Under the pieces are notes generated by a model. That model made no database searches and was not told where the DNA came from. It saw only the letters and a list, made by a program, of their open reading frames with translations. A DNA stretch of 13,482 nucleotides. Origin: a virus (lineage: Duplodnaviria > Heunggongvirae > Uroviricota > Caudoviricetes). This document shows, piece after piece, positions 1 to 13,266 of this stretch. The stretch covers positions 1 through 13,482 of the IMG/VR virus record IMGVR_UViG_2541047885_000013; one strand, given 5' to 3'. Position 1 is the stretch's first letter. Every line of letters begins with the position of its first letter. A program made the position numbers and the translations under genes.

Positions 1-1284
1 TTACTTCTTCGCCTCTGCAACCACTTTACTACCCACGCCGCGGTTATTGTATTCCCACATGCGGTTGTAGTTAGTGTCATTCAGATTGCGCTGTATTTCG
101 TCGTTATCATCTACGCTGCCGGTATTACCCGCAAACGGACGATTAGAGATCACCGCATCGGCCCACGGTTTAGCCGTGTTAAAACCTTCGTTGATGGCGC
201 TATCACGGATCACCACCTGACCGTTGGTATTGGCATCAACATCCAGCGAGCGGCCCAGTTGCGCCACACCATCACCGAAAGCATTGAAACGGCTGTTTAC
301 GGCGAGGAAACCGTAGTAAATGTTGGACAGCGTAGCCGGTGCAAACACATACGCTTCTTGCTGAGTACGTGAGTTCACCACGCGGAATTCGGTGTTATCG
401 AACACCACTGCGCCGCGACCAGAAACGATATCCACATCCCCTTCAATGTAGCTGTTGGTCACCAGCGTACGCGGCTGACGATTCGTTTCCAGACGGTTCT
501 GCACACCGCTGTTGGTGACAAAGAAGGTGTTCTGACGACCGAGAATGTTAACGTTGTTAATCTGTACCTGGTCACCATCAGTACGCAGTGCCACCGCCGG
601 ATGGTTACCTGCATCTACGCTATCGCCCAGCGTGTTTTCGATGGTCAGATTTTGCAGTTGCAGGCCATTGTTTTGTGACCAGAAGACCGCAGAGCAGAGA
701 ACACCGATACTGTCGCTGCGTTTGCTCTGGCAGCTATCGTACATATACCACGCTGGTTTACCTGGCATATATTTGCCGCGCGGGTTGACGTCGTGACGCC
801 AGTCGGCAGGGCTCATGCCACCATCAAGGGAAAGCCCAATCTTCACATCAATCGGTTTTTCACCTGTACCGTACAGAGTAATTCCACCCGGAGCGGCAGG
901 GACATATACCGTTCCCTGATACTCACCAGGCATCACGGCAATATACTGGCGCTTGTTGGTACGCTTGATAATTGCCGCATCTACCGCCGCCTGAATCGTG
1001 GTATGCGTTACACCTTGAGTGCCCGCCGGGCCGACAACAAAGTCAGGTTGCGCAGGCAGGGTAATCGGGGAAGGATTCCACGCTGCAGCACCTGGTGTCA
1101 GGGATGAAAAATAGTGTTGAGCATCGAAATTCTGCGCTTCTTTTGCCGACAGAATCGGGCGAGAAGAGGTACCAGGCGCGGTTTGATCAGAAGGACGTTG
1201 ATCGGGCGGGGTTGAGCTACAGGCGGTCAGCGTCACGCCAAAAGCCAATGCCAGCGCCAGACGGGAAACTGAAAATGTGTTCAC
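1..1284 (-). CDS. ybhC: YbhC, putative pectinesterase-family outer-membrane lipoprotein (host gene flanking attλ)
   Basis: Complete 427-aa ORF from the track; N-terminus has a lipoprotein signal with lipobox LTAC; sequence matches my recollection of E. coli YbhC, which lies next to attλ on the gal side. The window begins at its stop codon. Confidence 0.85.
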   Translation of the reverse strand: MNTFSVSRLALALAFGVTLTACSSTPPDQRPSDQTAPGTSSRPILSAKEAQNFDAQHYFSSLTPGAAAWNPSPITLPAQPDFVVGPAGTQGVTHTTIQAAVDAAIIKRTNKRQYIAVMPGEYQGTVYVPAAPGGITLYGTGEKPIDVKIGLSLDGGMSPADWRHDVNPRGKYMPGKPAWYMYDSCQSKRSDSIGVLCSAVFWSQNNGLQLQNLTIENTLGDSVDAGNHPAVALRTDGDQVQINNVNILGRQNTFFVTNSGVQNRLETNRQPRTLVTNSYIEGDVDIVSGRGAVVFDNTEFRVVNSRTQQEAYVFAPATLSNIYYGFLAVNSRFNAFGDGVAQLGRSLDVDANTNGQVVIRDSAINEGFNTAKPWADAVISNRPFAGNTGSVDDNDEIQRNLNDTNYNRMWEYNNRGVGSKVVAEAKK

Positions 1285-1330
1285 AGGTTGCTCCGGGCTA
1301 TGAAATAGAAAAATGAATCCGTTGAAGCCT

Positions 1331-1420
1331 GCTTTTTTATACTAAGTTGGCATTATAAAAAAGCATTTCTTATCAACTTGTTGCAACGAACAGGTCACTA
1401 TCAGTCAAAATAAAATCATT
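1331..1420. other. attL: attL of a lambda-type prophage: 15-bp core GCTTTTTTATACTAA (1331-1345) followed by the P' arm
   Basis: Core is read directly at 1331-1345. The following GTTGGCATTATAAAAAAGCATT..CTTATCAA..TTGTTGCAACGAACAGGTCACTATCAGTCAAAATAAAATCATTATTTG matches the remembered lambda attP P' arm (Int arm-type sites) with about 2 mismatches. Host sequence lies to the left and int immediately to the right. Confidence 0.85.
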
Positions 1421-2489
1421 ATTTGATTTCAATTTTGTCCCACTCCCTGCCTCTGTCATCACGATACTGTGATGCCATGGTGTCCGACTTATGCCCGAGA
1501 AGATGTTGAGCAAACTTATCGCTTATCTGCTTCTCATAGAGTCTTGCAGACAAACTGCGCAACTCGTGAAAGGTAGGCGGATCCCCTTCGAAGGAAAGAC
1601 CTGATGCTTTTCGTGCGCGCATAAAATACCTTGATACTGTGCCGGATGAAAGCGGTTCACGACGAGTAGATGCAATTATGGTTTCTCCGCCAAGAATCTC
1701 TTTGCATTTATCAAGTGTTTCCTTCATTGATATCCCGAGAGCATCAACATGCAATGTTGTAGGGATGGCAATTTTTACGCCTGTTTTGCTTTGCTCGACA
1801 TAAAGATATCCATCTACGATATCAGACCACTTCATTTCGCATAAATCCCCAACTCGCTGCCCGGTAACAACAGCCAGTTCCATTGCAAGTCTGAGCCAAC
1901 ATGGTGATGATTCTGCTGCTTGATAAATTTTCAGGTATTCGTCAGCCGTAAGTCTTGATCTCCTTACCTCTGATTTTGCTGCGCGAGTGGCAGCGACCGG
2001 GTTTGTTGTTATATGGCCTTCAGCCATTGCCTCTCGGAATGCATCGCTCAGTGTTGATCTGATTAACTTGGCTGACGCCGCCTTGCCCTCGTCTATGTAT
2101 CCATTGAGCATTGCCGCAATTTCTTTTGTGGTGATGTCTTCAAGTGGAGCATCAGGCAGACCCCTCCTTATTGCTTTAATTTTGCTCATGTAATTTATGA
2201 GTGTCTTCTGCTTGATTCCTCTGTTGACGAGGATTTTTTCGTAGCGATCAAGCCATGAATGTAACGTAACAGAATTATCACTGTTGATTCTCGCTGTCAG
2301 AGGCTTGTGTTTGTGTCCTGAAAATAACTCAATGTTGGCCTGTATAGCTTCAGTGATTGCTATCCTCCTGTCTCGGCCTAAACCAAACTCTTTACCCGTC
2401 CTTGGGTCCCTGTAGCAGTAATATCCATTGTTTCTTATATAAAGGTTAGGGGGTAAATCCCGGCGCTCATGACTTCGCCTTCTTCCCAT
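1419..2489 (-). CDS. int: Integrase (tyrosine recombinase), lambda Int type
   Basis: 356-aa translation MGRRRSHERRDLPPNLYIRNNGYYCYRDPRTGKEF...RDDRGREWDKIEIK matches lambda Int over its full length from memory; position next to attL and overlap with xis are as in lambda. Confidence 0.96.
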   Translation of the reverse strand: MGRRRSHERRDLPPNLYIRNNGYYCYRDPRTGKEFGLGRDRRIAITEAIQANIELFSGHKHKPLTARINSDNSVTLHSWLDRYEKILVNRGIKQKTLINYMSKIKAIRRGLPDAPLEDITTKEIAAMLNGYIDEGKAASAKLIRSTLSDAFREAMAEGHITTNPVAATRAAKSEVRRSRLTADEYLKIYQAAESSPCWLRLAMELAVVTGQRVGDLCEMKWSDIVDGYLYVEQSKTGVKIAIPTTLHVDALGISMKETLDKCKEILGGETIIASTRREPLSSGTVSRYFMRARKASGLSFEGDPPTFHELRSLSARLYEKQISDKFAQHLLGHKSDTMASQYRDDRGREWDKIEIK

Positions 2490-2685
2490 TTCTGATCCTC
2501 TTCAAAAGGCTACCTGTTACTGGTCGATTTAAGTCAACCTTTACCGCTGATTCGTGGAACAGATACTCTCTTCCATCCTTAACCGGAGGAGGGAATATCC
2601 TGCATTCGCGCACCCATCGACGAACTGTTTCAAGGCTTCTTGGGCGTCGCTGGCGTGCGTTCCACTCCTGAAGTGTCAAGTACAT
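2467..2685 (-). CDS. xis: Excisionase, lambda Xis type
   Basis: 72-aa translation MYLTLQEWNARQRRPRSLETVRRWVRECRIFPPPVKDGREYLFHESAVKVDL... matches lambda Xis; its 3' end overlaps the int start by 23 nt as in lambda. Confidence 0.95.
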   Translation of the reverse strand: MYLTLQEWNARQRRPRSLETVRRWVRECRIFPPPVKDGREYLFHESAVKVDLNRPVTGSLLKRIRNGKKAKS

Positions 2686-2790
2686 CGCAAAGTCTCCGCA
2701 ATTACACGCAAGAAAAGCCGCATTGATGCGGCAATGGTAGGTCTGGATATCTTGAGAAATGAACGGGCCTCATCGAGTGTGAGGCTGTGG

Positions 2791-3135
2791 TTAGTCCTTG
2801 CGTAACTCGCTAATTCTTCTGTAAGTCTCTGGTGCTTTGTTTCCGTGTATCTTCATTTCAGACTTCAACAGAGCAACGAGGGAATCCCATTCGGTGAGGA
2901 TGCCTTTGAATGCCGGAACGCGCTTTGCAACCTTGTCGAATGAATCTCTGATTTCTGGGATCTGCTCAACCAGTGCAACGCATCGTCGGAAATCGGCTGC
3001 GTCATGTGGAGCGCCGAAGTGATGACCATAGATATTCTTTTTCAGTCCACATGCGATTGAGGCAAGAGTTGCGCTACTGATGCCGACATCGCCAGTCGAT
3101 TGCCATTTCAAAACCTTCATAGCCAAATCTGACAT
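2791..3135 (-). CDS. Hypothetical protein, 114 aa (accessory gene next to xis)
   Basis: Track ORF 2791..3162; I place the start at the internal ATG (MSDLAMKVLKWQ...) because GGAG sits about 8 nt upstream and the longer N-terminal extension would run through a terminator hairpin. No family recognised. Confidence 0.55.
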   Translation of the reverse strand: MSDLAMKVLKWQSTGDVGISSATLASIACGLKKNIYGHHFGAPHDAADFRRCVALVEQIPEIRDSFDKVAKRVPAFKGILTEWDSLVALLKSEMKIHGNKAPETYRRISELRKD

Positions 3136-3146
3136 TTCTTGTCTCC

Positions 3147-3172
3147 AATAAAAAACCGCCATCAGGCGGTTT
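3147..3172 (-). terminator. Intrinsic terminator-like hairpin (AACCGCC-TGAT-GGCGGTT followed by TTTTTTATT on the minus strand)
   Basis: Read from the sequence: 7-bp GC-rich stem, 4-nt loop and a T-run on the minus strand. The stop codon of the 55-aa ORF lies in the loop, and the T-run runs into the RBS of the 114-aa gene. Confidence 0.5.
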
Positions 3173-3329
3173 GGTGTTCTTTCAGTTCTTCAATTCGAAT
3201 ATTGGTTACGTCTGCATGCGCTATCTGCGCCCATATCATCCAGTGGTTATAGCAGTCGTTGATGTCCTCTGCTTCGATAACCCTGTCGAATGACTCTCCA
3301 TTCCATTCACCTGTGACTCGGAAGTGCAT
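3162..3329 (-). CDS. Small hypothetical protein, 55 aa (MHFRVTGEWNGESFDRVIEAEDINDCYNHWMIWAQIAHADVTNIRIEELKEHQTA)
   Basis: Hand-translated ORF, below the track length cutoff; GGAG lies 8 nt upstream of the ATG (tatGGAGatgataaATG); bracketed by terminator-like hairpins upstream and downstream. In a different frame from the track's 61-aa ORF 3236..3421. Confidence 0.45.
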   Translation of the reverse strand: MHFRVTGEWNGESFDRVIEAEDINDCYNHWMIWAQIAHADVTNIRIEELKEHQTA

Positions 3330-3339
3330 TTATCATCTC

Positions 3340-3367
3340 CATAAAACAAAACTCGCCGTAGCGAGTT
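3340..3367 (-). terminator. Terminator-like hairpin (AACTCGC-tacg-GCGAGTT followed by TTTGTTTTAT on the minus strand)
   Basis: Inverted repeat read directly, about 65 nt downstream of the DUF551 gene stop, with a T-rich tail on the minus strand. Confidence 0.4.
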
Positions 3368-3429
3368 CAGATAAAAGAAATCCCCGCGAGTGCGAGGATT
3401 GTTATTCACCTTTGACGGCAAGTTGAAGG

Positions 3430-4350
3430 TTAGCCACGGTTAACCCCCTGCGGCGGTTCTGGCAGCGGCATCCAGTGGGTTACGTCATCCAAGATATTTC
3501 CTGATAAATATGTGAAAGCTCTATATTTTTTGTAATCAATTGGACTCATTACCCAGTTCCAATATGCTGCCACTATTTGACCTTGACTAAATGCCAGTAA
3601 CATTTTGGTGTCGTCCGGCATTCGCTCACTACAGCTTATCCAACCATCCGGAGTTACCGGAACTTGTGGAATGGCTGTCTGCTCTCGAACGTCATTAGGC
3701 GCTATAGGTTCTGCTGCCAACTGACTGGCATATTTGTTAATGGTAACGATAAGCTCTTGCTCAGCCTCATCCAGACAATCACCGATACCTCGCCTGTCAC
3801 CGTCAAAATCATCGAAATCGGCACGAATCCTGGCAACCTTCAGGATTGCGGACAACACCTCACTAGGAATTGCCGGATAGTTGGTTGACGTTTCCGCGAT
3901 TTCCCGAAAATTATTGGTTGACGAATTCTTGTTTTCCCGAAAGTTTCCGGACTGAAGCATGGCGGCGCGGCAGGCGTTCCATATTTCGGCAGCAATATCG
4001 CGCTCGCTATCGGTTAATTTGTACGTTGAAACATAGCCAGAGAGCATTTCTACGTTTTCCGGAGTTGCTTCTTCAGGCACTACCGGTGCTGGAGGGGCGG
4101 CGTAAATGCCCTCTATCACTAAATGTTTGCGCTCAAAATCATCTGGCTCTCGATGATATACGTAACTCCAATCACCAAGGTTATCATTGCGCCTGCAACG
4201 GAAACCTATCGGCTCTGCTTCCAGCGATGCCAGAGCAATTCGTGCCAGTTCTTCCGCTTCTTCTGCTGGCAGTACAACGTTGCTACCAGGTCCGTATGTT
4301 TCGCGCCACTGCCTGATTGTCAGCAGTCGCTCTTTGGTAATAGTGGTCAT
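3430..4350 (-). CDS. DUF551-like prophage protein, 306 aa
   Basis: Track ORF; the C-terminal segment ending ...VTHWMPLPEPP resembles the DUF551 domain common in enterobacterial prophage early regions; the N-terminal two thirds are unassigned. Confidence 0.65.
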   Translation of the reverse strand: MTTITKERLLTIRQWRETYGPGSNVVLPAEEAEELARIALASLEAEPIGFRCRRNDNLGDWSYVYHREPDDFERKHLVIEGIYAAPPAPVVPEEATPENVEMLSGYVSTYKLTDSERDIAAEIWNACRAAMLQSGNFRENKNSSTNNFREIAETSTNYPAIPSEVLSAILKVARIRADFDDFDGDRRGIGDCLDEAEQELIVTINKYASQLAAEPIAPNDVREQTAIPQVPVTPDGWISCSERMPDDTKMLLAFSQGQIVAAYWNWVMSPIDYKKYRAFTYLSGNILDDVTHWMPLPEPPQGVNRG

Positions 4351-4360
4351 GTGTTAGTCC

Positions 4361-4624
4361 TTATCCTGCTGTACTTTCAACTGATGAGGGGAATAAAATC
4401 TTTTCATCAAATCCGGCATTCATATCATGAACAGCAACACACCAATCCATTGACGAACGATTATCAAGAGCTTCCATGATTTCATCCATGCGGCGCAGGT
4501 CATACAGGTAAATGCTTTTATCGCCAATGGTGTAAAAACCAATTTTTTTCGGTGATGGGCAGCGATCAAGAACGTCCTGTAATTCGCTCAACCATGCTTG
4601 TTCTTTTTTTGTCAAAGTTGCCAT
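4361..4624 (-). CDS. Hypothetical protein, 87 aa
   Basis: Track ORF in the same orientation and tightly packed with its neighbours (2-nt gap to the next gene); no family recognised. Confidence 0.5.
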   Translation of the reverse strand: MATLTKKEQAWLSELQDVLDRCPSPKKIGFYTIGDKSIYLYDLRRMDEIMEALDNRSSMDWCVAVHDMNAGFDEKILFPSSVESTAG

Positions 4625-4625
4625 A

Positions 4626-5168
4626 TCACTCTCCTTTGATGCGAATGTCAGCGACGCGTAATGCGTGTTCTAGGTCAATCAGGTAAAGCCAACTGCCATT
4701 TTCTTTAGGTATCATGACTTGTCGCTCATCTGCATTTATCGGGTGTCCATATCGAAGGTCGTAGCGAGTCGGTAATTGAACTTCCCGCGCTTCCAGTTCA
4801 GCAATACGCTTGCACCCATCAGAGATAACTCCCTCGTAATACTCGCGCTGCTCGTTGAGTTTTGATTTTGCTGCTTCAAGCTCAACGCGCAGCTTCCCAA
4901 CCGTAAGCGCAATATCCTCGTTCTCCTGGTCGCGGCGTTTGATGTATTGCAGGTTTCTTTCCCGTTCATCCAACAATGCCAGCACGGTTTCTGGTCAGGT
5001 CAGAAATTTGAAGGCGTTGAGCGCATCAATATCCACACCGTAATCTTTAAGTTCCTGTTCACTTATCAGATCATCATCAACTGGCAACATTAACAGGCGT
5101 TCCATTGCCGGAATTGCACGTTCTGCCGCCTCACGCAGCGCCAGTGTGTCGATGTCGATGTTGCTCAT
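4626..5168 (-). pseudogene. ea22-like coiled-coil gene interrupted by an in-frame TGA (5' part 4995..5168, 3' part 4626..4985)
   Basis: Track ORFs 4995..5192 and 4626..4985 are in the same frame, separated by one TGA and three sense codons (...FKFLT*PET-V-LALLDERER...). The 5' part has a strong RBS (GAGGAGG) before MSNIDIDTL. The 3' part begins at a GTG with no recognisable RBS. The combined length of about 180 aa is close to lambda Ea22 (182 aa, from memory). Confidence 0.45.
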
Positions 5169-5398
5169 TGTGCCTCCTCGATTTCGTCCCATTCCACCCA
5201 GGCATTCTCTCCATCAGCATCGATTTCACCTTTGTGACCGCATTTGGAACAAACGGCCTCATCACCCGCCCACAAAGAATCTTTGGTTACCGACCATCCT
5301 GTTACCTTGGCTTTGCCGTGCTGGCACTTAGGGCAATCATCAAGCCATTCGACTTCGACCATTGAAGGACCAAATCCATGTTCAGTTCGGATGCTCAT
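5165..5398 (-). CDS. Small zinc-ribbon protein, about 77 aa (two CxxC pairs: CPKC and CSKC)
   Basis: Track ORF 5165..5431; I prefer the start at MSIRTEHG because its ATG overlaps the stop of the upstream gene as ATGA. Its own stop overlaps the start of the ea22-like gene in the same way. Confidence 0.55.
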   Translation of the reverse strand: MSIRTEHGFGPSMVEVEWLDDCPKCQHGKAKVTGWSVTKDSLWAGDEAVCSKCGHKGEIDADGENAWVEWDEIEEAQ

Positions 5399-5943
5399 GA
5401 CTGAACTCCTTTGCGAATCTGTTCCGCCCATTCTTCAAGGGATTTCTCCGCATATTCACCGGACAGGCCATCAATCGGATGCGGTTCATTAGCCAACTCT
5501 TCTTTCGCTGACAAAATCATGCGTGTAACGTCGAAAACTTCACGCAAAGACTTATTGATAAATCCGTGATTGAACGCAGCAGCAAGACGGCTTGCGGTGT
5601 AGTTAATCCCCTCGTTGCGTGCCTCCGCACGTATTTCAGCCAGGAAAGCGTCGGTGTCTGTGGTTTCGATATCGTTAATTTCAGGAAGAATCTCTTCCCA
5701 TGTAGCGATATCGCCATTCAAATGCCATCCGGCAATTCCACTGGAGTTATCCGCAACACTGCGAACAGCTTCAATAGTTTCATGCATTGCCGCATTCTCA
5801 GCCGCCAGAGCAGCATATTTATCTTCAAGTTCACCGAATTTACGCACCAGATATTCAGCGTTTGTTTCGTTAACCTTTAAATCATTTGGGATGCATTTAC
5901 CTTTCAGAAAACCATCCATCTCAATTAGTGACATTTGTTTCAT
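5395..5943 (-). CDS. Hypothetical protein, 182 aa
   Basis: Track ORF; GGAG lies about 9 nt upstream of the ATG; coupled to flanking genes by ATGA overlaps. No family confidently recognised. Confidence 0.6.
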
Positions 5944-6104
5944 TTTTTCCCACTCCGCAACATCGCATTCAGATATTTGTTTTGATTCACTGATGGAAAA
6001 GAATTTCTTTTAAGCAATTCTTCTCTCGATGGCATTGGCTTTACGCGTTGGCGAATAATCATTTCTGCCGGAAGAATGCCGGGGTTGTATGCAAGTCCTC
6101 TCAT
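5940..6104 (-). CDS. Small hypothetical protein, 54 aa ([54 protein letters not shown])
   Basis: Hand-translated, below the track cutoff; its start overlaps the stop of the 93-aa gene (ATGA) and its stop overlaps the start of the 182-aa gene (ATGA). It fills an otherwise non-coding 160-nt gap. Confidence 0.4.
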
Positions 6105-6382
6105 GATTTACTCTCCATGAACTGGTCAACAGCCATGCTAAGTGATACACCTAAAGTCTCGATATGCTGCTGAATATCCTGTAGCGTCTGCGCCTGAGAT
6201 AACAGGATTTCACGGTTGCATAACTCTTTGACCAGATGCTCAAACTTGCTGTAATAACCGATACGGCTTAGTGTTTCTTTCCCTGCATTCTCGCCTTCTT
6301 TGATAATTCCTCTTTCGCTAAGAATCAGATCGTGTTTGGTTCCGGTAATAACGTATTTGCCGAGGTCAATGTTTAGCTTCAT
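6101..6382 (-). CDS. Hypothetical protein, 93 aa
   Basis: Track ORF in operon orientation; no family recognised. Confidence 0.55.
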
Positions 6383-6398
6383 TGTTAATTACTCCATG

Positions 6399-6713
6399 TT
6401 AATTTATTCGTATGCCTGCTCTTCCTTCATCGAGTTTTTTTAGCTTGTATCGCATAGCTCTCACTGAATAAATTGAGCGGCAGGTTGCAATTGCTATTTC
6501 TTCTGCGGAGAACTTACCGAAAAGTGATACTTCGGCTCTTGTCCAGCGTCTTCCACGAAGTCGGCTAACAATGTCAGCGCCAATCCTTGTTGCTTTCGCC
6601 ATTACTGCTTTTTCAGTCCTTTCCAGTTTTTCAGCGATAACTTCAACTGGCATTGTCGCCGCTACTTCGCGCAAGAAATCGACTTCCCATTTCTCCCATG
6701 GAGTCTTTTTCAT
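6399..6713 (-). CDS. Hypothetical protein, 104 aa, with two tandem HTH-like motifs
   Basis: Track ORF. Two internally similar segments (W-x3-E-V..(E/V)EIA...R(T/S)...V.A...) match the general pattern of sigma-region-4/LuxR-type helix-turn-helix motifs; this is a pattern judgement, not a search hit. Confidence 0.55.
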   Translation of the reverse strand: MKKTPWEKWEVDFLREVAATMPVEVIAEKLERTEKAVMAKATRIGADIVSRLRGRRWTRAEVSLFGKFSAEEIAIATCRSIYSVRAMRYKLKKLDEGRAGIRIN

Positions 6714-6724
6714 AGGCGATACCG

Positions 6725-7207
6725 TTATTTGATAAGAAGTGAAGGTTTCCCAACCTTGAGTTGAGCGCCTGGGATATTTATTCCTGCTTTTAGTTGGTGC
6801 TTGATTGCCAGTTTGTCGGCTTTAATTGTCGTTTCGAACTCAACGTATTCAGGAGGAAGGGCGCTTGAGTCGATGATTTCTACAATTTCTGACGGTTTGC
6901 GGATTGTTACCTGGTGAATACCTGCTCGAATATTTTTCTTGCCAACCATTTCAAGCGATGACGCTATATATGATTTGATGCTGTCAATCTTATTTTGAAT
7001 TACTGCGGCTCGCTCATTCAGTGACTTTGCCTCTTCCTTGAGGCGTTCAGCATAACCAGATTCATTTTTAATGACGGAAAGAAGTTGCTCTATTTTATCG
7101 GTAAATTCTCCTTCCATGCCTTCTATTGTGTCAGCAATCATCTCTGGTTCTAAATCTGAATCCATCAATTTTGCGTATTCATTGGCAATTTCATATAGTT
7201 TGCTCAC
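6725..7207 (-). CDS. Coiled-coil protein resembling the siphovirus Gp157 family, often found beside phage recombinases
   Basis: Track ORF 6725..7213 begins at a TTG; I prefer the GTG start two codons in (GGAGG about 6 nt upstream). The family assignment is from recollection and the genomic context directly downstream of recT. Confidence 0.4.
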   Translation of the reverse strand: MSKLYEIANEYAKLMDSDLEPEMIADTIEGMEGEFTDKIEQLLSVIKNESGYAERLKEEAKSLNERAAVIQNKIDSIKSYIASSLEMVGKKNIRAGIHQVTIRKPSEIVEIIDSSALPPEYVEFETTIKADKLAIKHQLKAGINIPGAQLKVGKPSLLIK

Positions 7208-8102
7208 TGGCAACCTCCAGTTTCGCTTTGCATTCTGCGTAAATGGCTTGTACGTTCTGCTGCAATTTCATTCCAGATGTCAGGCGATATGCTTCTGCAA
7301 AATATCGCTTCAAATCATCCATGTTTTCAGCCTGAGCCATTTCATCACAAAGAAGTTGTGCTTTATCCGTTATTTCCTGCTGGCGTTTCCGTTCATCTTC
7401 GCGGATATCTTCCTCTGATTTGTGCGGCATAACTGGTTCAGTCCACACACCTTCTTCTTCGTTTAGTACGTGAATAGCACTATCAAGACGTGATGCCTTA
7501 GGCCAATACTTGCTTGCACGCTTTACGACCGTCTTTCGCGCCATCTCATTCCAGTGATTTACCCATGGTCCTTTATCGCTGAATGCCGCCTTGCTTGTTT
7601 TCCTTACAGCCTCAATTTCAGCCAGACTCATCTCTTCCGTTAGATAATCACCTGCTGGCGTCTTAACTGTGCAGTAAACGCCAACGATATCACCACGATC
7701 ACCGAAGGCGTTGTATTTATGGGTTGGTGCTTTATCAAGCCCGTTTGACTCATAGGTATCGTTAGCATGAACAAGTTTTGCCTGACCCCATGAGATAACA
7801 CCAGACTCCATTGCAATATGGAGCAATCCCATATAACTGATATCAAGGCACACCATGCCGTCGCGAGGAACCAGATAAGCCAGTTTGCTGGCCGGGTTTA
7901 AGGTGATGCCGATCGCCGCAACATTGATGATGGCGTTCTGTGCGCTGGTTGGATTTGCCAGTGCCGTTTTAGCCAGGTAATCATTTTTCTGGAAATACTG
8001 AATTGCAAACTGGCTTTCCTTAGCCCATGTCACCGTCTGTTCAGTCAATGCTCCGCAGAATAACTGCTCTTGCTGTTTAACGAATTCAACGATATTGCTC
8101 AT
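7191..8102 (-). CDS. recT: RecT-family single-strand annealing recombinase
   Basis: 303-aa translation contains ...GPWVNHWNEMARKTVVKRASKYWP..., closely paralleling Rac RecT ...GPWVTHWEEMAKKTAIRRLFKYLP..., plus the RecT-like segment NVAAIGITLNP. Confidence 0.8.
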   Translation of the reverse strand: MSNIVEFVKQQEQLFCGALTEQTVTWAKESQFAIQYFQKNDYLAKTALANPTSAQNAIINVAAIGITLNPASKLAYLVPRDGMVCLDISYMGLLHIAMESGVISWGQAKLVHANDTYESNGLDKAPTHKYNAFGDRGDIVGVYCTVKTPAGDYLTEEMSLAEIEAVRKTSKAAFSDKGPWVNHWNEMARKTVVKRASKYWPKASRLDSAIHVLNEEEGVWTEPVMPHKSEEDIREDERKRQQEITDKAQLLCDEMAQAENMDDLKRYFAEAYRLTSGMKLQQNVQAIYAECKAKLEVASEQTI

Positions 8103-8410
8103 GCAGCTTCTCCATAAATATGTCTGCGTTTGAATATTGCGAAGGCATATTCAGCCTTAACTCTTTCGGTTATTGCATCCCAGAACCATTCAGCGGCTTT
8201 TTCCTGATAGTTACAGTCATCATCTTCCAGCCAGTCGATAGCGTCCTTAGTGTGTTCATCTGGTTTATATGAGCGAAGCATTTCGCTTATTGGGTCGCAA
8301 CGTTTGCAGAGGCGATCAACTTCACTGTTGATTCGTTCGTAATCTTCATCAGTAAAACTTGCGATTATTTGCGATATTTCACGCTTATCATTCAGAGTCA
8401 GAATCATCAT
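8099..8410 (-). CDS. Hypothetical protein, 103 aa
   Basis: Track ORF; AGGAG lies 4 nt upstream of the ATG; its stop overlaps the recT start (ATGA). Confidence 0.55.
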   Translation of the reverse strand: MMILTLNDKREISQIIASFTDEDYERINSEVDRLCKRCDPISEMLRSYKPDEHTKDAIDWLEDDDCNYQEKAAEWFWDAITERVKAEYAFAIFKRRHIYGEAA

Positions 8411-8495
8411 CTTTCTCCTGTTCTTTGTGCTGATTGAGCATTTTGTTCATCTGACGAATGAATTCTTCGTCTGACCAGTTATCTGTAAAACTCAT
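8388..8495 (-). CDS. Small acidic hypothetical protein, 35 aa (MSFTDNWSDEEFIRQMNKMLNQHKEQEKDDDSDSE)
   Basis: Hand-translated; its start overlaps the stop of the cIII-like gene (ATGA); its 3' end overlaps the start of the 103-aa gene in another frame. Weak RBS. Confidence 0.3.
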   Translation of the reverse strand: MSFTDNWSDEEFIRQMNKMLNQHKEQEKDDDSDSE

Positions 8496-8662
8496 GGACG
8501 GCCTTGTTGTTTCAAAATATCCCAAAGCTTTTCGAGCAAACTTTTCATTCTTGGTTGTTTAAAGTCTGCTCCGGTTAAAATATTTTTTCGTGAATGCTGT
8601 ACCGATAAAATCGGGTTGAAAGGGCGAACCGATGCCGCCCCTGCAATAGCGAACTGTTGCAT
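8492..8662 (-). CDS. cIII: cIII-like protein, 56 aa (putative FtsH inhibitor)
   Basis: Internal start of track ORF 8492..8767, with AGGAG 5 nt upstream of the ATG. The translation MQQFAIAG...KSLLEKLWDILKQQGRP resembles lambda CIII (MQYAIAGW...ESLLERITRKLRDGWKRLIDILNQPGVP, from memory), and it lies in the expected position in the pL operon. Confidence 0.5.
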   Translation of the reverse strand: MQQFAIAGAASVRPFNPILSVQHSRKNILTGADFKQPRMKSLLEKLWDILKQQGRP

Positions 8663-8866
8663 AGGATGCTCCTTCTGTTTGATTGCATAACGAAAACGCC
8701 TCAAGTGAAGCGTTATTGGTATGCATATAAAAAAGCCCTCACATAGGAGGGCAAAGAAGATTTCCAATAATCAGAACAAGTCGGCTCCTGTTTAGTTACG
8801 AGCGACATTGCTCCGTGTATTCACTCGTTGGAATGAATACACAGAGCAGTGTTTATTCTGTTTTTT

Positions 8867-8896
8867 ATGGCAAAAATAAAAGCTGCCATCAGGCAG
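8867..8896 (-). terminator. Intrinsic terminator-like hairpin (GCTGCC-TGAT-GGCAGC followed by TTTTATTTTT on the minus strand), in a tL1-like position
   Basis: Read from the sequence; it lies in the pL operon downstream of N and the small acidic ORF and upstream of cIII, a position analogous to lambda tL1. Confidence 0.5.
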
Positions 8897-8969
8897 CCTT
8901 GTTGTTCTGTTTACCAAGTTCTCTGGAAATCATTGCCGTCGTTCGTATTGTCCACACCATTGATTTTTA

Positions 8970-9056
8970 TCAATAGTCGTAGTCATACGGATAGTCCTGG
9001 TATTGTTCCATCACATCCTGCGGATGCTCTTCGAACTCTTCAAATTCTTCTTCCAT
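8970..9056 (-). CDS. Very acidic 28-aa peptide (MEEEFEEFEEHPQDVMEQYQDYPYDYDY)
   Basis: Hand-translated; strong RBS (GAGGTGA) 4 nt upstream of the ATG; first ORF downstream of N. The track's plus-strand ORF 8849..9088 is antisense to it. Confidence 0.4.
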   Translation of the reverse strand: MEEEFEEFEEHPQDVMEQYQDYPYDYDY

Positions 9057-9064
9057 ATATCACC

Positions 9065-9391
9065 TCAAATAAGTGGTTTGCTGCCTAATTTCATTTTCTG
9101 GCGACCAACACAAGTCACACCCATTTCACTGCGTGGCTTGCTGTACCATGTGCGCTGATTCTTGCGCTCAATACGTTGCAGGTTGCTTTCAATCTGTTCG
9201 TGGTATTCAGCCAGCACTGTAAGGTCTATCGGATTCAGTGCGCTTTCTACTCGTGATTTCGGTTTGCGATTCAGCGAGAGAATTGGGCGGTTAACTGGTT
9301 TTGCGCTTACCCCAACCAACAGGGGATTTGCTGCTTTCCATTGAGCCTGTTTCTCTGCGCGACGTTCGCGGCGGCGTGTTTGTGCATCCAT
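9065..9391 (-). CDS. N: Antitermination protein N (lambda type)
   Basis: 108-aa translation MDAQTRRRERRAEKQAQWKAANPLLVGVSAKPVNRPILSLNRKPKSRVESALNPIDLTVLAEYH... matches lambda N (arginine-rich boxB-binding motif at the N-terminus); the extreme C-terminus differs. Confidence 0.93.
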   Translation of the reverse strand: MDAQTRRRERRAEKQAQWKAANPLLVGVSAKPVNRPILSLNRKPKSRVESALNPIDLTVLAEYHEQIESNLQRIERKNQRTWYSKPRSEMGVTCVGRQKMKLGSKPLI

Positions 9392-9589
9392 CTGGATTCT
9401 CCTGTCAGTTAGCTTTGGTGATTGGATGGCCGGCGCTGAACCCCGGCTTACTGGTTAGAGCGCCCGCACTACCAGTGACGCTGTCTTGAGGCGCAGATTG
9501 GTTACTGCTTGCCATGAGCGCTGTTTATACATTGGTCGAGCATCAGCCTGCTCATTCATCCAATCCCAAAGCCTTCTGCTTTGAAAGCT

Positions 9590-9622
9590 GCCCTTCTTCA
9601 GGGCTTAATTTTTAAGAGCATC
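9590..9622 (-). promoter_or_regulatory. nutL: nutL (boxA CGCTCTTAA-like, boxB GCCCTGAAGAAGGGC on the minus strand)
   Basis: The reverse complement of 9590-9622 reads GATGCTCTTAAAAATTAAGCCCTGAAGAAGGGC, matching lambda nutL boxA and boxB, in the leader between pL and N. Confidence 0.85.
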
Positions 9623-9652
9623 ACCTTCATGGTGGTTAGTGCGTCCTGCTGA

Positions 9653-9688
9653 TGGCTAAATAGTACGATTTGTACTTTATCGAGTCAA
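9653..9688 (-). promoter_or_regulatory. pL promoter (-35 TTGACT, 17-bp spacer, -10 TACTAT, predicted +1 near 9653) with an overlapping operator AAAGTACAAATCGTACTATT
   Basis: Minus-strand sequence TTGACT-N17-TACTAT-TTAGCC-ATCAGCAGGACGCAC has the same architecture as lambda pL and its transcript start (ATCAGCAGG), but the operator sequence is different from lambda's. Confidence 0.7.
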
Positions 9689-9750
9689 TACAAAATGTTC
9701 TAAATATGATTAGTTTTTTATAACGCTTTGTATTTAATGGGTTTATGTTT

Positions 9751-9783
9751 TGGAAAAAGAAAACCCGACGCTAAGGTCGGGTT
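9751..9783 (-). terminator. Intrinsic terminator immediately downstream of cI (AACCCGAC-loop-GTCGGGTT followed by TTCTTTTTCC on the minus strand)
   Basis: 8-bp GC-rich stem and T-run read directly, about 30 nt after the cI stop. Confidence 0.6.
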
Positions 9784-9813
9784 ATTGTTGTGTGTTTTAG
9801 AGTTGTGAGGCTG

Positions 9814-10473
9814 TTAACTAAATGTCTCTTCAGGCCACTGGCTGGCGATAACTTTCCCTACTACGGAACAGCTATCATTGCATGGAATCATTGGATATTG
9901 CGGGTTTAGTGGCTGTAGGAACACCTGACCGCTATCCCTGATCAGTTTCTTGAAGGTAAACTCGTCACCACCAAGTCTGGCTATGCAGAAATCACCTGGC
10001 TCAACAGCCTGCTCAGGGTCAACGAGAATTAACATCCCGTCAGGAAAGCTTGGCTTGGATCCTGTTGGCGCGGTCATGGAATTACCTTCAACTTCAAGCC
10101 AGAACGCACAATCACTGGCTTTTTTGGTTGTGCTGACCCATCTCTCCGCATCACCTTTGGTAAAGGTTCTAAGCTCAGGCGAGAACATCCCGGCCTGAAC
10201 ATGAGAAAAAACAGGGTACTCATATTGTTTTTTAACGGGGGCAGATGAGTATTCGCCAACAGGTGAAAATGTACCGTCGTGGTTGAATGAGACGTTATCA
10301 ATACCAAGGTATTTAAACACCACACCAATCTCGTCAAGAGATGGATGACGAGATCCGCGCAACCAGTGACCAATTCCACCCTGCGTCATACCAAGCTCTT
10401 CAGCTAACTTCTCTTGAGTTATGCCGAGCTCTTTCATTCTGGATCTAGCCAGTTCATACCATTTCATTTTCAT
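9814..10473 (-). CDS. cI: cI-type prophage repressor: lambda-like C-terminal S24 autopeptidase/dimerisation domain joined to a non-lambda N-terminal HTH domain
   Basis: Track ORF 9814..10515. From ...[39 protein letters not shown]... to the end it matches the lambda CI C-terminal domain almost residue for residue (from memory). The N-terminal about 90 aa ([40 protein letters not shown]...) is an XRE-type HTH unlike lambda's. Start chosen at MKMKW (10473); 10467 or 10515 are possible. Confidence 0.85.
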
Positions 10474-10529
10474 ACCCTTATTATTACGCTCTGTACTAAA
10501 ACCATCCATGCACAAGATGTATTTTTTGT

Positions 10530-10558
10530 TTGCATTCTAAAAGTACATATCGTATTAT
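10530..10558 (+). promoter_or_regulatory. pR promoter (-35 TTGCAT, 17-bp spacer, -10 TATTAT) with an overlapping operator AAAGTACATATCGTATTATT
   Basis: Read directly in the cI-cro intergenic region. The 20-bp operator-like sequence over the -10 is a near copy (2 mismatches) of the one overlapping the pL -10; a third related site (TAGTACAGAGCGTAATAAT, minus strand, about 10479-10498) sits just upstream of the cI start. Confidence 0.55.
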
Positions 10559-10584
10559 TGTTTCATGGTTACTATGGAGGGCAT

Positions 10585-10800
10585 ATGAGCAACCTACGAA
10601 AATATCGAGAGTCACTGAATATCTCTCAAACAACACTTGCTAAGGCAGTTGGATGCACACAGGGAGCTATCGGACATTGGGAATCTGGTCGTCGCTTCCC
10701 AGACCTTAAAACATGCCGTGCTCTTGTTGAGTGCCTAAACAAGTTAGGCGCAAAAGTCAGTCTTGATGACGTGTTCCCGCCGGAACACAAAGCCGCTTAA
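10585..10800 (+). CDS. cro: Cro-like repressor, 71 aa, XRE-type HTH
   Basis: Internal ATG of track ORF 10414..10800, with GGAGGG 4 nt upstream. Its HTH (ISQTTLAKAVGCTQGAIGHWESG) is similar to the cI N-terminal HTH. It is divergent from cI and followed by nutR. Confidence 0.8.
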   Translation: MSNLRKYRESLNISQTTLAKAVGCTQGAIGHWESGRRFPDLKTCRALVECLNKLGAKVSLDDVFPPEHKAA

Positions 10801-10809
10801 GACATTCTA

Positions 10810-10840
10810 GCTCTTACACATCACAGCCCTGAAAAAGGGC
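10810..10840 (+). promoter_or_regulatory. nutR: nutR (boxA GCTCTTACACA, boxB GCCCTGAAAAAGGGC)
   Basis: Sequence AGCTCTTACACATCACAGCCCTGAAAAAGGGC matches lambda nutR boxA and boxB, between cro and cII. Confidence 0.85.
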
Positions 10841-10916
10841 ATTACCAGAAACAAATCTCTATGGTTTTGCGTTTCTTTGCGAAGCCAACTCTATCTAATC
10901 ATTAAGGAAATTATCT

Positions 10917-11198
10917 ATGGGTACTATTGCAACTAAAAGCAAGAAAGCGGCTCGCATCGAGTCGGCCTTGCTGAACAAACTGGCACTGATGGGGCAGAAG
11001 ACATTCGCTCGAGCAATGGGGGTTCCTGAATATCAGGTAAGCCGATGGAAGAATGGTTTCTTCTCGCAGGTAAGCATGATGCTTGCTGTTCTGGAATACG
11101 GAATCGAAGACGATGAAATGGCTGAATTGACTAAGCGGCTTGCCGATTACCTGACAAAAGAAAAAGCCCCGAAGAACGGCGAATTCTTCGAGGCATGA
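10917..11198 (+). CDS. cII: cII-like transcriptional activator, 93 aa
   Basis: Translation ...[33 protein letters not shown]...[18 protein letters not shown]... parallels lambda CII ([33 protein letters not shown]...LLAVLEWGVVDDDMARL); position after cro and nutR. Confidence 0.75.
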
Positions 11199-11232
11199 TG
11201 TAGAAAGACTGGATCAATCCACAGGAGTAATT

Positions 11233-11379
11233 ATGACAAAACAACTCAGTCCTTACCAGGACAAAATTCACAAACACATACTACGTGATCGCTTCCTGTC
11301 CAGCTTCAAGCAGCCTGGTCGATTCCGGGCTGAGTTGGAAAAAGTGAAGCTGATGCAGAAGGAGAAAGGTCATGAGTAA
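11233..11379 (+). CDS. Small hypothetical protein, 48 aa, between cII and O
   Basis: Hand-translated ([48 protein letters not shown]); AGGAG lies 5 nt upstream of the ATG; its 3' end overlaps the O start by 8 nt. Confidence 0.35.
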
Positions 11380-12232
11380 TCTTGCAACCGTAACACATTT
11401 AAGGCCTTCACAACGGCCTGTGGAGCGTCGTGTGGCAGAAGTTGAAGATGGTTATACCCGTCTTGCAAATGCCCTGTATGAAGAGCTTATCGGCGCAGAT
11501 TTAACGAAAAATCAGAGCAAGGTTGCCCACGCCATATGCCGTAAAACATACGGCTACGGTAAAAAGATGGATCGCATCTCTGATAGTCAGTTAGCTCAAA
11601 TTACCAGGCTGCCAAGACAGAAGGTAAACAAGGCCAAGAATGAGCTTATCGCGATGAAGGTTATCCTTCGCGAAGGCCAGCAAATCGGGCCTAACAAGAA
11701 CATCGAGGAATGGCAAATCGAAGGGTGTCACTACTCTGGTGATAATGTCACTGCATTGGTGACAAAAAGTGTCACCAAAACGGTGACAGCGCTGTCACCA
11801 AAACAGGGACACACAAAAGAAACTATTACAAAAGAAAAAAGAAATAATAAAAACACTATGTCCGAAAGTGTTCGGACGGAGTGTGAAAAATCACCTGACC
11901 GTCACGAAGAAACCGACAAGGCATTCGAGGAAATATTCTGGTGTGCAGGCATGCGGAAAGCCGGGAAGAAAAACGCAGCTTCGGCATTCAGAACACAGTT
12001 CAGGGAATGGCGTAAAACTACCAGGGGTACGGCAAGCGAGTTTGCCACGATGCTGGCAGAAGACATCGCATGCAGGAATGGTAAGCAGTTCGGATTCGAC
12101 AGGTTGTTACCATCGAGCTACCTGAACGGTCAACGCTGGAACGACGAGAAGCCAGAAACTATTCAACCACAATCCAAACCATCATCCGCAATCACCGTAT
12201 CGAAAACTGGCTACGTGTTTTTCGACAGGTGA
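11372..12232 (+). CDS. O: Replication initiator, lambda O-like N-terminal iteron-binding domain
   Basis: The N-terminal region ([56 protein letters not shown]...GPNKNIEEW) parallels lambda O (DGYARLSNMLLEAYSGADLTKRQFKVLLAILRKTYGWNKPMDRITDSQLSEITKLP...GPNKNISEW); iterons lie inside the gene. The C-terminal half is not recognisably lambda-like. Confidence 0.8.
11726..11860. repeat. Putative replication origin inside the O gene: GTCAC/GTGAC iterons followed by an AT-rich tract
   Basis: Read directly: TGTCAC (11726), TGTCAC (11745), GGTGACA (11758), TGTCACC (11770), GGTGACA (11782), TGTCACC (11793), then an A/T-rich stretch (about 11815-11860). This organisation is analogous to the lambda origin. 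Confidence 0.6.
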
Positions 12233-12235
12233 ACC

Positions 12236-12343
12236 ATGAAATCAAAAATCAAATCGCTACTGGTCGCTGGTTATAACCACGGTTGGTTAAGTATTTCGTT
12301 TGTCGATTTCTGGTTTAAAAATCTCAATCTGAGGGAATCATGA
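12236..12343 (+). CDS. Small hydrophobic peptide, 35 aa (MKSKIKSLLVAGYNHGWLSISFVDFWFKNLNLRES)
   Basis: Hand-translated; AGGTGA lies just upstream of the ATG; its stop overlaps the start of the primase-like gene (ATGA). Confidence 0.35.
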   Translation: MKSKIKSLLVAGYNHGWLSISFVDFWFKNLNLRES

Positions 12344-13266
12344 CGCCAAGTGAACTCAGCGACCTGCTTTGGGCGCAGGTTGACAGGGTGGCTCCGCACC
12401 TGTTGCCAAACGGCAAGAAAGAGGGGCATGAGTGGGTTGCCGGTAACGTCAACGGTGACAAGGGAAACAGCCTTAAGGTCAACCTTAGCGGCAAGAAAAA
12501 ATGGGCTGATTTCGCTGAGGGAGACGGCGGTGACATGCTTGATTTGTGGATGGCGTGTCGTGGAATTAACCTGCATCAGGCTATGCAGGAAGCGAAAGCC
12601 TTTCTCGGAATCAAGGATGACGATCACCATTTCGATGCCAAACGTGAGAAGAAATTCTCCAGACCTGATCGCAAGAAAATCGCCCGCTATGTTACCAGAA
12701 CAGAATCCCATCTTGAGTACCTGCAATCGCGTGGCATATCGCCAGAAGTCGTAAAGCGCTACGAGGTTGTAAGCGGCAAGGTGTGGAATGGAGAGCGGGA
12801 ACTGGATGCTCTGGTGATTCCGTACAAACGCGATGGTGAGTTGTTGCAGGTCAAGCGAATCAGCACTGAGCGCCCGGACGGGAAGAAAGTCATTATGGCA
12901 GAAGGTGATTGCGAACCTTGTCTGTTCGGATGGCAGGCTCTGGACGCTGGCGTGAGGGCGGTTGTACTTTGCGAAGGCGAAATTGATTGTATGAGCTATG
13001 CGCAATACGGCATCTCGGCGTTATCCGTGCCGTTTGGTGGAGGGAAAGGCGCTAAGCAACAGTGGATTGAGTTTGAGTACCACAACCTCGACAGGTTTGA
13101 GGAAATATTCATCTCGATGGACGTTGATGATGTTGGTCGTGAAGCCGCAAGGGAAATCGCAAGCCGACTCGGTGAACATCGTTGCCGTCTTGTTACTCTG
13201 CCGTACAAAGACATTAACGAATGCCTGATGAATGGTGTTACCGAGGATGAAATCTGGCAGTACTGA
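12340..13266 (+). CDS. Toprim-domain primase-like replication protein, probably truncated at its 3' end by an IS insertion
   Basis: 308-aa track ORF with Toprim-like motifs (VVLCEGEIDCMSYAQYG and ISMDVDDVGREA). Its stop codon TGA (13264-13266) is the first three bases of the IS terminal repeat. Confidence 0.65.
   Translation: MTPSELSDLLWAQVDRVAPHLLPNGKKEGHEWVAGNVNGDKGNSLKVNLSGKKKWADFAEGDGGDMLDLWMACRGINLHQAMQEAKAFLGIKDDDHHFDAKREKKFSRPDRKKIARYVTRTESHLEYLQSRGISPEVVKRYEVVSGKVWNGERELDALVIPYKRDGELLQVKRISTERPDGKKVIMAEGDCEPCLFGWQALDAGVRAVVLCEGEIDCMSYAQYGISALSVPFGGGKGAKQQWIEFEYHNLDRFEEIFISMDVDDVGREAAREIASRLGEHRCRLVTLPYKDINECLMNGVTEDEIWQY

Follow-up and report, generated by a model that had tools for sequence, protein, structure and literature searches.

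A chain of small accessory genes joined by ATGA overlaps, including a 54-codon gene assigned to DUF2737, in the early-left operon of a lambdoid Escherichia coli prophage

Introduction

In lambdoid phages of the P22, Sf6 and HK620 type, the region between the recombination genes and xis/int, called the 'ea' region, is densely filled with small mosaic genes. Most of them are uncharacterised, and 4-nucleotide (nt) overlaps between the end of one gene and the start of the next are frequent. A region of the same kind is described here from a stretch of viral DNA of 13,482 nt (the window; positions 1 to 13,482 of the IMG/VR record IMGVR_UViG_2541047885_000013), with a combination of cassettes that is peculiar to this prophage when set against the 'ea' regions found elsewhere. 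Five minus-strand genes in the window are joined by four ATGA overlaps, in each of which the TGA closes one open reading frame (ORF) and the ATG starts the next. The second of the five genes encodes a protein of 54 amino acids (aa) that matches family DUF2737.

A counterpart of this arrangement is found in phage HK446, where gp29, gp28 and gp27 present the DUF5405, DUF2737 and EaE-like genes in the same order as the window, with 4-nt overlaps at both junctions. HK446 gp27 is Oad2, a relative of P22 EaE that is reported to bind the defence nuclease OLD of P2 and to inhibit it (bioRxiv 10.64898/2026.07.10.737580, a preprint of July 2026). Oad2 was enough by itself for the inhibition, and in vitro it bound to OLD (same preprint). 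A homologue from HK75, 54% identical to Oad2, showed no OLD inhibition, which the authors read as the signature of an arms race (same preprint).

Across prokaryotes, about 15% of the co-directional gene pairs overlap (PMC6728339), and 13 of the 14 overlapping pairs assayed in E. coli and Haloferax were strictly coupled in their translation (Huber et al. 2019, PMC6728339). Like these pairs, the genes of the window are co-directional, share a 4-nt stop/start overlap and carry a Shine-Dalgarno (SD) sequence within the 3' end of the upstream gene. For the assayed pairs, however, the dependence of the downstream gene on upstream translation was measured, whereas the chain of the window is known from its sequence. 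Our overall reading, to which we give a probability of roughly 0.85, is that accessory genes of the early-left (pL) operon are packed here by ATGA overlaps, that they are likely translated by termination and re-initiation, and that the 54-aa ORF is a DUF2737 gene.

The Gene Chain and Its Four Junctions

The chain and its junctions are made up of the following features.

6101..6382, minus strand: 93-aa gene, DUF5405; heads the chain, with its own ribosome-binding site after a 16-nt gap
6104-6101, minus strand: junction 1, ATGA of the 93-aa and 54-aa genes; GGAG at a spacing of 8 nt
5940..6104, minus strand: 54-aa gene, DUF2737; small basic protein
5943-5940, minus strand: junction 2, ATGA of the 54-aa and 182-aa genes; GGAG at a spacing of 9 nt
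5395..5943, minus strand: 182-aa gene, EaE/Oad2 family, a mosaic of cassettes
5398-5395, minus strand: junction 3, ATGA of the 182-aa and 77-aa genes; AAGGAG at a spacing of 7 nt
5165..5398, minus strand: 77-aa gene, CxxC...CxxC zinc ribbon
5168-5165, minus strand: junction 4, ATGA of the 77-aa and 57-aa genes; GAGGAGG at a spacing of 4 nt
4995..5168, minus strand: N-terminal piece (57 aa) of an Ead/Ea22-like gene, cut short by a TGA in frame at 4995-4997
4626..4994, minus strand: rest of the Ead/Ea22-like frame, with a 119-aa ORF that begins at a GTG at 4985; PF13935, 66 bits

A first-pass annotation of this DNA had proposed that ATGA overlaps chain the 93-aa, 54-aa, 182-aa, zinc-ribbon and ea22-like genes, and all four overlaps are present. 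The end of the proposed chain has to be qualified: the junction at 5168-5165 stands, and its 4-nt overlap is likewise annotated in E. coli G749, but the ea22-like gene that it opens is a 57-aa fragment interrupted by a nonsense codon. The SD-like motif of every downstream gene sits inside the 3' end of the gene before it, 4-9 nt from the ATG. Longer alternative ATG starts exist for the 77-aa gene (5431) and for the 57-aa gene (5192) and lack comparable SD motifs; RefSeq uses the overlapping starts at 5398 and 5168 in G749, and the genes called on the source contig begin there too.

The window has 94 ATGA tetranucleotides on its minus strand and 57 on its plus strand. A motif this common carries little weight by itself; what counts is that it joins ORFs with homologues. 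The first of these, the 93-aa protein, matches Pfam DUF5405 (PF17399) at 25.5 bits against a cut-off of 21.6, and phrog_154 with an E value of 5e-31. It belongs to the same family as HK446 gp29, whose record describes it as similar to Sf6 gene 24. Its exact sequence is present on 595 contigs, and a search of the PDB sequences with it returned nothing meaningful.

To place the chain among its relatives, the share of 4-nt overlaps was tallied manually in gene tables covering the early-left operons of six phages and prophages, the window included. About 24 of the 79 co-directional junctions (~30%) are of this type. The individual operons have 6 of 17 (window), 4 of 13 (P22), 3 of 11 (HK446), 3 of 10 (HK75), 6 of 16 (Enterobacter phage vB_Ecl_MII_001, with one run of five) and about 2 of 12 (UPF_BP1). 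With an overlap rate of this order and a longer run known, a run of four is typical of such regions rather than exceptional, and stop/start overlap chains are a routine and already known property of lambdoid accessory regions.

The 54-Codon Gene

The first-pass annotation held that the 54-aa ORF fills an apparent gap and is a real gene. The gap measures 157 nt, from the stop of the 93-aa gene to the start of the 182-aa gene, and both parts of the claim are borne out. Residues 1-53 of the protein align to positions 1-53 of the 53 positions of Pfam DUF2737 (PF10930), i.e., over the full length of the family, with 110.5 bits (cut-off 25) and an E value of 3.4e-32; the corresponding PHROG match is phrog_1117 (E 1e-37). 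A tblastn search with the 54-aa protein returned 292 phage records with a homologue; the hosts of these phages are Escherichia, Salmonella, Shigella, Enterobacter and Cronobacter. Copies in named phages are P22 ORF56, between abc2 and eaE, ES18 gp44 and ST104 orf10, and the records of HK446 (gp28) and HK75 label theirs as similar to HK97 gp38. A literature search for HK97 gp37 and gp38 yielded only unrelated structural papers, and the name DUF2737 turned up a single time, in one paper. The gene occurs in more than 590 stretches of IMG/VR, and at least 1000 public contigs carry the exact 54-aa sequence, which is named 'DUF2737 family protein' there. The further remark that the ORF was missing from the gene track is true of one annotation only: the Prokaryotic Genome Annotation Pipeline (PGAP) annotates the gene in G749 (WP_001214452.1), and a generic gene caller calls it on the source contig.

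For the comparison of relatives, 112 distinct contexts were assembled from the IMG/VR loci retrieved with the E. coli version and the P22 version of the protein as queries, together with a few phage records. The reading frame, whose conservation in related phages the first-pass annotation had named as a check, is open in every one of these contexts whose locus covers it fully. The gap-free core of 49 codons comes in 64 distinct DNA versions that encode only 19 proteins, and its variable columns are distributed over codon positions 1, 2 and 3 as 18, 4 and 38. The ratio of nonsynonymous to synonymous substitution rates (dN/dS) was calculated by the Nei-Gojobori method for pairs with dS >0.1, with the same alignment read in three frames. 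Its median is 0.075 in the frame of the gene and 1.25 and 2.45 in the shifted frames, a pattern of strong purifying selection on the 54-aa protein.

These data leave a negligible chance that the ORF is an accidental open frame in a spacer, or that its conservation is owed to a cis-acting or RNA element. Such a view could appeal to the shortness of the ORF, to its absence, according to the first-pass annotation, from one annotation track, and to the fact that no function is assigned to it. It is opposed by the full-length Pfam and PHROG matches, by substitutions biased to the third codon position with a low dN/dS in this frame only, and by protein homologues down to about 60% identity, which retain the open frame. 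An RNA element at the conserved block was also considered separately and rejected, as Rfam gave no family match, the local RNA around the junctions is unstructured and the substitutions are of the coding type. By its matches and its substitution pattern, the 54-aa ORF is a genuine protein-coding gene of DUF2737, an established family that is already catalogued.

The protein is basic, with 11 arginine and lysine residues against 3 glutamates, and it has a conserved core that is kept in distant members. P22 ORF56, HK446 gp28 and HK75 gp29 are of the same length class (54-56 aa); the identity is 77% to P22 ORF56 and 94% to the copies of HK75 and HK544. The upstream neighbour differs: in the window and in HK446 it is the DUF5405 gene, joined by an ATGA, whereas in P22 and HK75 it is abc2, followed by a 10-nt spacer. 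Apart from this neighbour, the 54-aa gene shows no substantial difference from the copies in P22, HK446 and HK75. In temperate phages, the usual place of DUF2737 is at the end of the recombination/anti-RecBCD module, ahead of an EaE-type gene.

When 1.84 billion representative proteins were searched with the profile, only 106 clusters of DUF2737 at 50% identity came out, nearly all of them 50-60 aa long or fragments; a few look like fusions to adjacent genes, and among the 106 there is no domain partner that would hint at a function. A 711-aa protein with nine near-identical repeats of about 79 aa gave a weak match over some 20 residues of each repeat (VKPLTAEEVLAKLNEF); it was judged spurious, probably a product of chance or low complexity. 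Judging from its position, our best guess is that DUF2737 is a host-directed accessory peptide of a recombination/anti-defence hotspot. It is improbable, in our estimation, that DUF2737 is an unrecognised host-directed or anti-defence peptide, acting alone or as a partner of EaE/Oad2, with cassettes of SD and NTGA serving as the joints for the shuffling of anti-defence cassettes within the recombination-locus hotspot of lambdoid phages.

Conservation of the Junctions and Translational Coupling

The downstream junction of DUF2737 is strongly conserved. Its stop overlaps the next start in 109 of the 112 contexts, as ATGA in 83, as GTGA in 11 and as a 13-nt overlap in 15, the last being the P22-type loci. 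At their own 3' ends, the EaE-like genes overlap the downstream ORF through an NTGA in 79 of 82 cases. Upstream of DUF2737, the ATGA is found in all 10 contexts that have DUF5405 upstream, in addition to the window; HK446 gp29/gp28 is joined in the same way, and so is one Enterobacter phage with a different upstream gene. Two distant copies also lie within chains of small genes with 4-nt overlaps, one in the virulent Jersey-like Salmonella phage SE2, between the lysis and terminase genes (positions 2759-3421 of the fetched locus), and one on a metagenome contig (positions 16-517 of the fetched locus). Neither of them has a neighbour annotated as an EaE or recombination gene.

In the proposed mechanism, the five small accessory genes would be co-transcribed on one polycistronic mRNA. 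A ribosome that ends one gene would already sit at the start of the next (AUGA) and would re-initiate there, and the amounts of the DUF5405, DUF2737, EaE/Oad2-family, zinc-ribbon and Ea22-like products would be linked. Termination-reinitiation coupling is, from the anatomy of the four junctions, the most likely mode of their translation.

Several observations weigh against our overall reading. First, the upstream end of DUF2737 is most often not an overlap at all: the gene is preceded by a 10-nt spacer in 99 of the 112 contexts and by a 16-nt spacer in 2, so that conservation of the overlap holds for the downstream end and beside DUF5405 but not for the upstream end in general. Ahead of the 10-nt spacer stands abc2, an anti-RecBCD gene, in P22, UPF_BP1 and HK75 and in each of the 80 loci of the first set. 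Since the spacer replaces the ATGA in so many contexts, an overlap at this end is not required and depends on the neighbour; overlaps are a lasting feature of the surroundings of DUF2737, but the one at its upstream end does not belong to the gene as such. Second, every downstream start in the window has a good SD of its own, and the 80-nt RNAs spanning these junctions are no more stably folded than shuffled sequences (z = +1.2, +1.1, -0.2 and +0.3), with no sign of an occluded ribosome-binding site at any of the four. With their own SDs and unstructured junction RNAs, the downstream genes could be initiated de novo and independently. Third, structure prediction and profile searches gave no lead to a function of DUF2737. 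AlphaFold2, run on the 54-aa protein with an alignment of 28 sequences, returned three short helices at low confidence (predicted local distance difference test, pLDDT, 64.6; predicted template modelling score, pTM, 0.22), a model too uncertain to support a search for similar folds; the DUF2737 profile found nothing meaningful among the PDB sequences; and the genes of the chain gave no PADLOC hit and nothing above the NCBIfam cut-offs. Finally, as gp27 of HK446 suffices to inhibit OLD, its DUF2737 neighbour gp28 is not needed for that activity.

The same features lend themselves to another explanation, in which the overlaps are a by-product of genome compaction or module exchange and have no role in coupling: each gene would be translated independently from its SD, and a cassette of SD and NTGA would move with the downstream gene. 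The strong SD ahead of every start and the unstructured junction RNAs fit it well, as does the 10-nt spacer at the upstream junction of DUF2737 in most relatives. Further support comes from the C-terminal tail of DUF2737, which varies with the gene that follows: it ends in ...RSGKK-stop before EaE genes of the MKQM type, in ...RKGGNQ-stop with a GTGA before other genes, and in ...RKDKCNR-stop in the P22 type. The tails ...LRKGGNQ-stop and ...IRKGVQS-stop recur at the ends of EaE genes. Both the AAAGGAG SD and the NTGA start of the following gene lie within the sequence of these shared tails. As the DUF2737 tail switches with the downstream gene, the points of recombination lie a few codons ahead of the stop, and the stretch of SD and NTGA behaves like a cassette for the junction, moving together with the downstream module. 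The C-terminal residues of such genes are set by the ribosome-binding site of the gene that follows.

As an explanation that leaves coupling out, we nevertheless regard this as rather unlikely. The overlap is kept in 109 of 112 contexts for DUF2737 and in 79 of 82 for the EaE-like genes despite extreme mosaicism, which suggests selection for the overlap itself, and overlapping pairs assayed in E. coli are almost always coupled (PMC6728339). By-product and coupling are, moreover, not mutually exclusive, and both can hold.

Different genes (DUF2737, EaE and Ea22) thus share their tails, which are ...LRKGGNQ-stop, ...IRKGVQS-stop and ...IRIKGE-stop. In the window, the gene ends concerned by this sharing are at 5395-5420, 5940-5965 and 4626-4650.

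The EaE/Oad2-Family Neighbour

The 182-aa protein matches phrog_614 with an E value of 2e-79. In BLASTP, it is 45% identical to HK446 gp27 (Oad2) over 143 aa, with large gaps (E 8e-32), and 38% identical to P22 EaE over 152 aa (E 3e-24); HK75 gp28 is found with an E value of 1e-28. The similarity is unevenly spread: over its first 42 residues the protein is almost the same as Oad2, and the C-terminal half resembles P22 EaE. The exact protein is present on only 2 contigs, and a search of the PDB sequences with it gave nothing meaningful. The HK446 and HK75 records label their copies of the EaE family as similar to HK97 gp37.

The variability of this gene beside its constant neighbour is considerable. 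In 80 loci with 96-100% identical DUF2737, 66 different proteins are encoded downstream. These 66 versions are built from alternative cassettes joined at a conserved N-terminus of about 40 aa, an ALAAENAxLK motif, a TPATDAFLAEVRA hinge and a QLRKGGNQ tail. By these alignments, the 182-aa protein is itself a mosaic member of the EaE/Oad2 family. Such mosaicism next to a constant and uncharacterised DUF2737 fits an arms-race hotspot. As the HK75 homologue, 54% identical to Oad2, is inactive, anti-OLD activity is not to be assumed for the window's variant at 45%. An EaE-like accessory gene can also decay in prophages, as seen in E. coli G749, where it is annotated as a truncated pseudogene fragment that is followed by about 400 nt without an annotated gene (positions 3300-3844 of the fetched locus).

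DUF2737 and the EaE/Oad2 protein might also be thought of as one unit of two subunits, in which DUF2737 would bind the conserved N-terminal 40 residues of its partner and the ATGA would set the stoichiometry. Hundreds of E. coli genomes inherit DUF2737 and the first 40 or so codons downstream as one block, and many alignments break at positions 5786-5824 of the window. An EaE-type N-terminus lies downstream of DUF2737 in all but about 11 of the 112 contexts, the EaE hinge motif was found in 82 of 106 scored downstream genes, and, according to PMC10666635, overlapping pairs often encode the subunits of complexes. However, Oad2 alone was sufficient for OLD inhibition and bound OLD in vitro (bioRxiv 10.64898/2026.07.10.737580). 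DUF2737 also precedes unrelated genes and, in SE2, has no EaE-annotated gene nearby, and the joint inheritance of adjacent DNA may be plain linkage. A two-subunit unit is very doubtful, and we retain the reading of separate accessory genes packed by overlaps in one operon.

As a finding, the 54-aa gene amounts to the closing of a small annotation gap within a routine arrangement; it is ordinary and matters little. The 182-aa gene is the more interesting neighbour, through its kinship to the newly described OLD inhibitor Oad2, and some promise lies in the function of DUF2737 and in its relation, if any, to the hypervariable EaE/Oad2 proteins.

The Prophage and Its Early-Left Operon

The left end of the window carries the following features.

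1..1284: ybhC, pectinesterase-family gene, at the left end of the window
1419..2489: lambda-type integrase, after ybhC
2467..2685: excisionase, after the integrase

As ybhC is followed here by int and xis, the prophage occupies the lambda attB site; it is a lambdoid prophage at the lambda attachment site of the E. coli chromosome. Contig KE701649.1 of the E. coli assembly GCA_000460275.1 carries both the 182-aa and the 77-aa protein in exactly this form, and the nearest complete genome is that of E. coli G749, 96.7% identical. The genes on KE701649.1 are ordered ybhC, int, xis, small accessory genes, Gp157, RecT, N, a cI-type repressor, a cro-like helix-turn-helix gene, cII and O. On account of this order, the minus strand from about 2500 to 9400 is assigned to the early-left operon, transcribed from pL and antiterminated by N, and the gene chain lies within it. 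A consensus scan of the minus strand from 4300 to 7100 showed no promoter-like or terminator-like site; such a scan is weak evidence, and its outcome is compatible with one polycistronic transcript.

The Zinc-Ribbon Gene and the Interrupted ea22-Like Gene

The 77-aa protein matches phrog_4446 with an E value of 1e-22 at positions 127-202 of the 204-position profile only, and its zinc-ribbon matches in Pfam and NCBIfam are weak and below threshold. As the PHROG match is confined to this part, the protein stands by itself where other phages have it as the C-terminal domain of a longer one. It is on record in its 77-aa form (WP_021557660.1).

The 57-aa piece that follows scores 25 bits against the Ead/Ea22-like family PF13935, under the cut-off of 27, and is not the frame of an intact member. 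It shares one continuous reading frame with the 119-aa piece, from which it is split by the TGA at 4995-4997. Three relatives have GGA (Gly) at this codon, so the TGA is a G-to-T nonsense mutation, and the ea22-like copy of E. coli G749 carries a different internal stop. The interrupted gene looks like a case of prophage gene decay. Programmed read-through or recoding at the TGA was considered as well and rejected, given the GGA of the relatives and the different internal stop of the other strain. There is no SD ahead of the 119-aa ORF, and for this reason the remainder is probably not translated, or translated by rare read-through only. The next gene, 4361..4624, starts 1 nt past the stop of the 119-aa ORF, and any coupling of its translation to the disrupted ea22-like gene may be lost.

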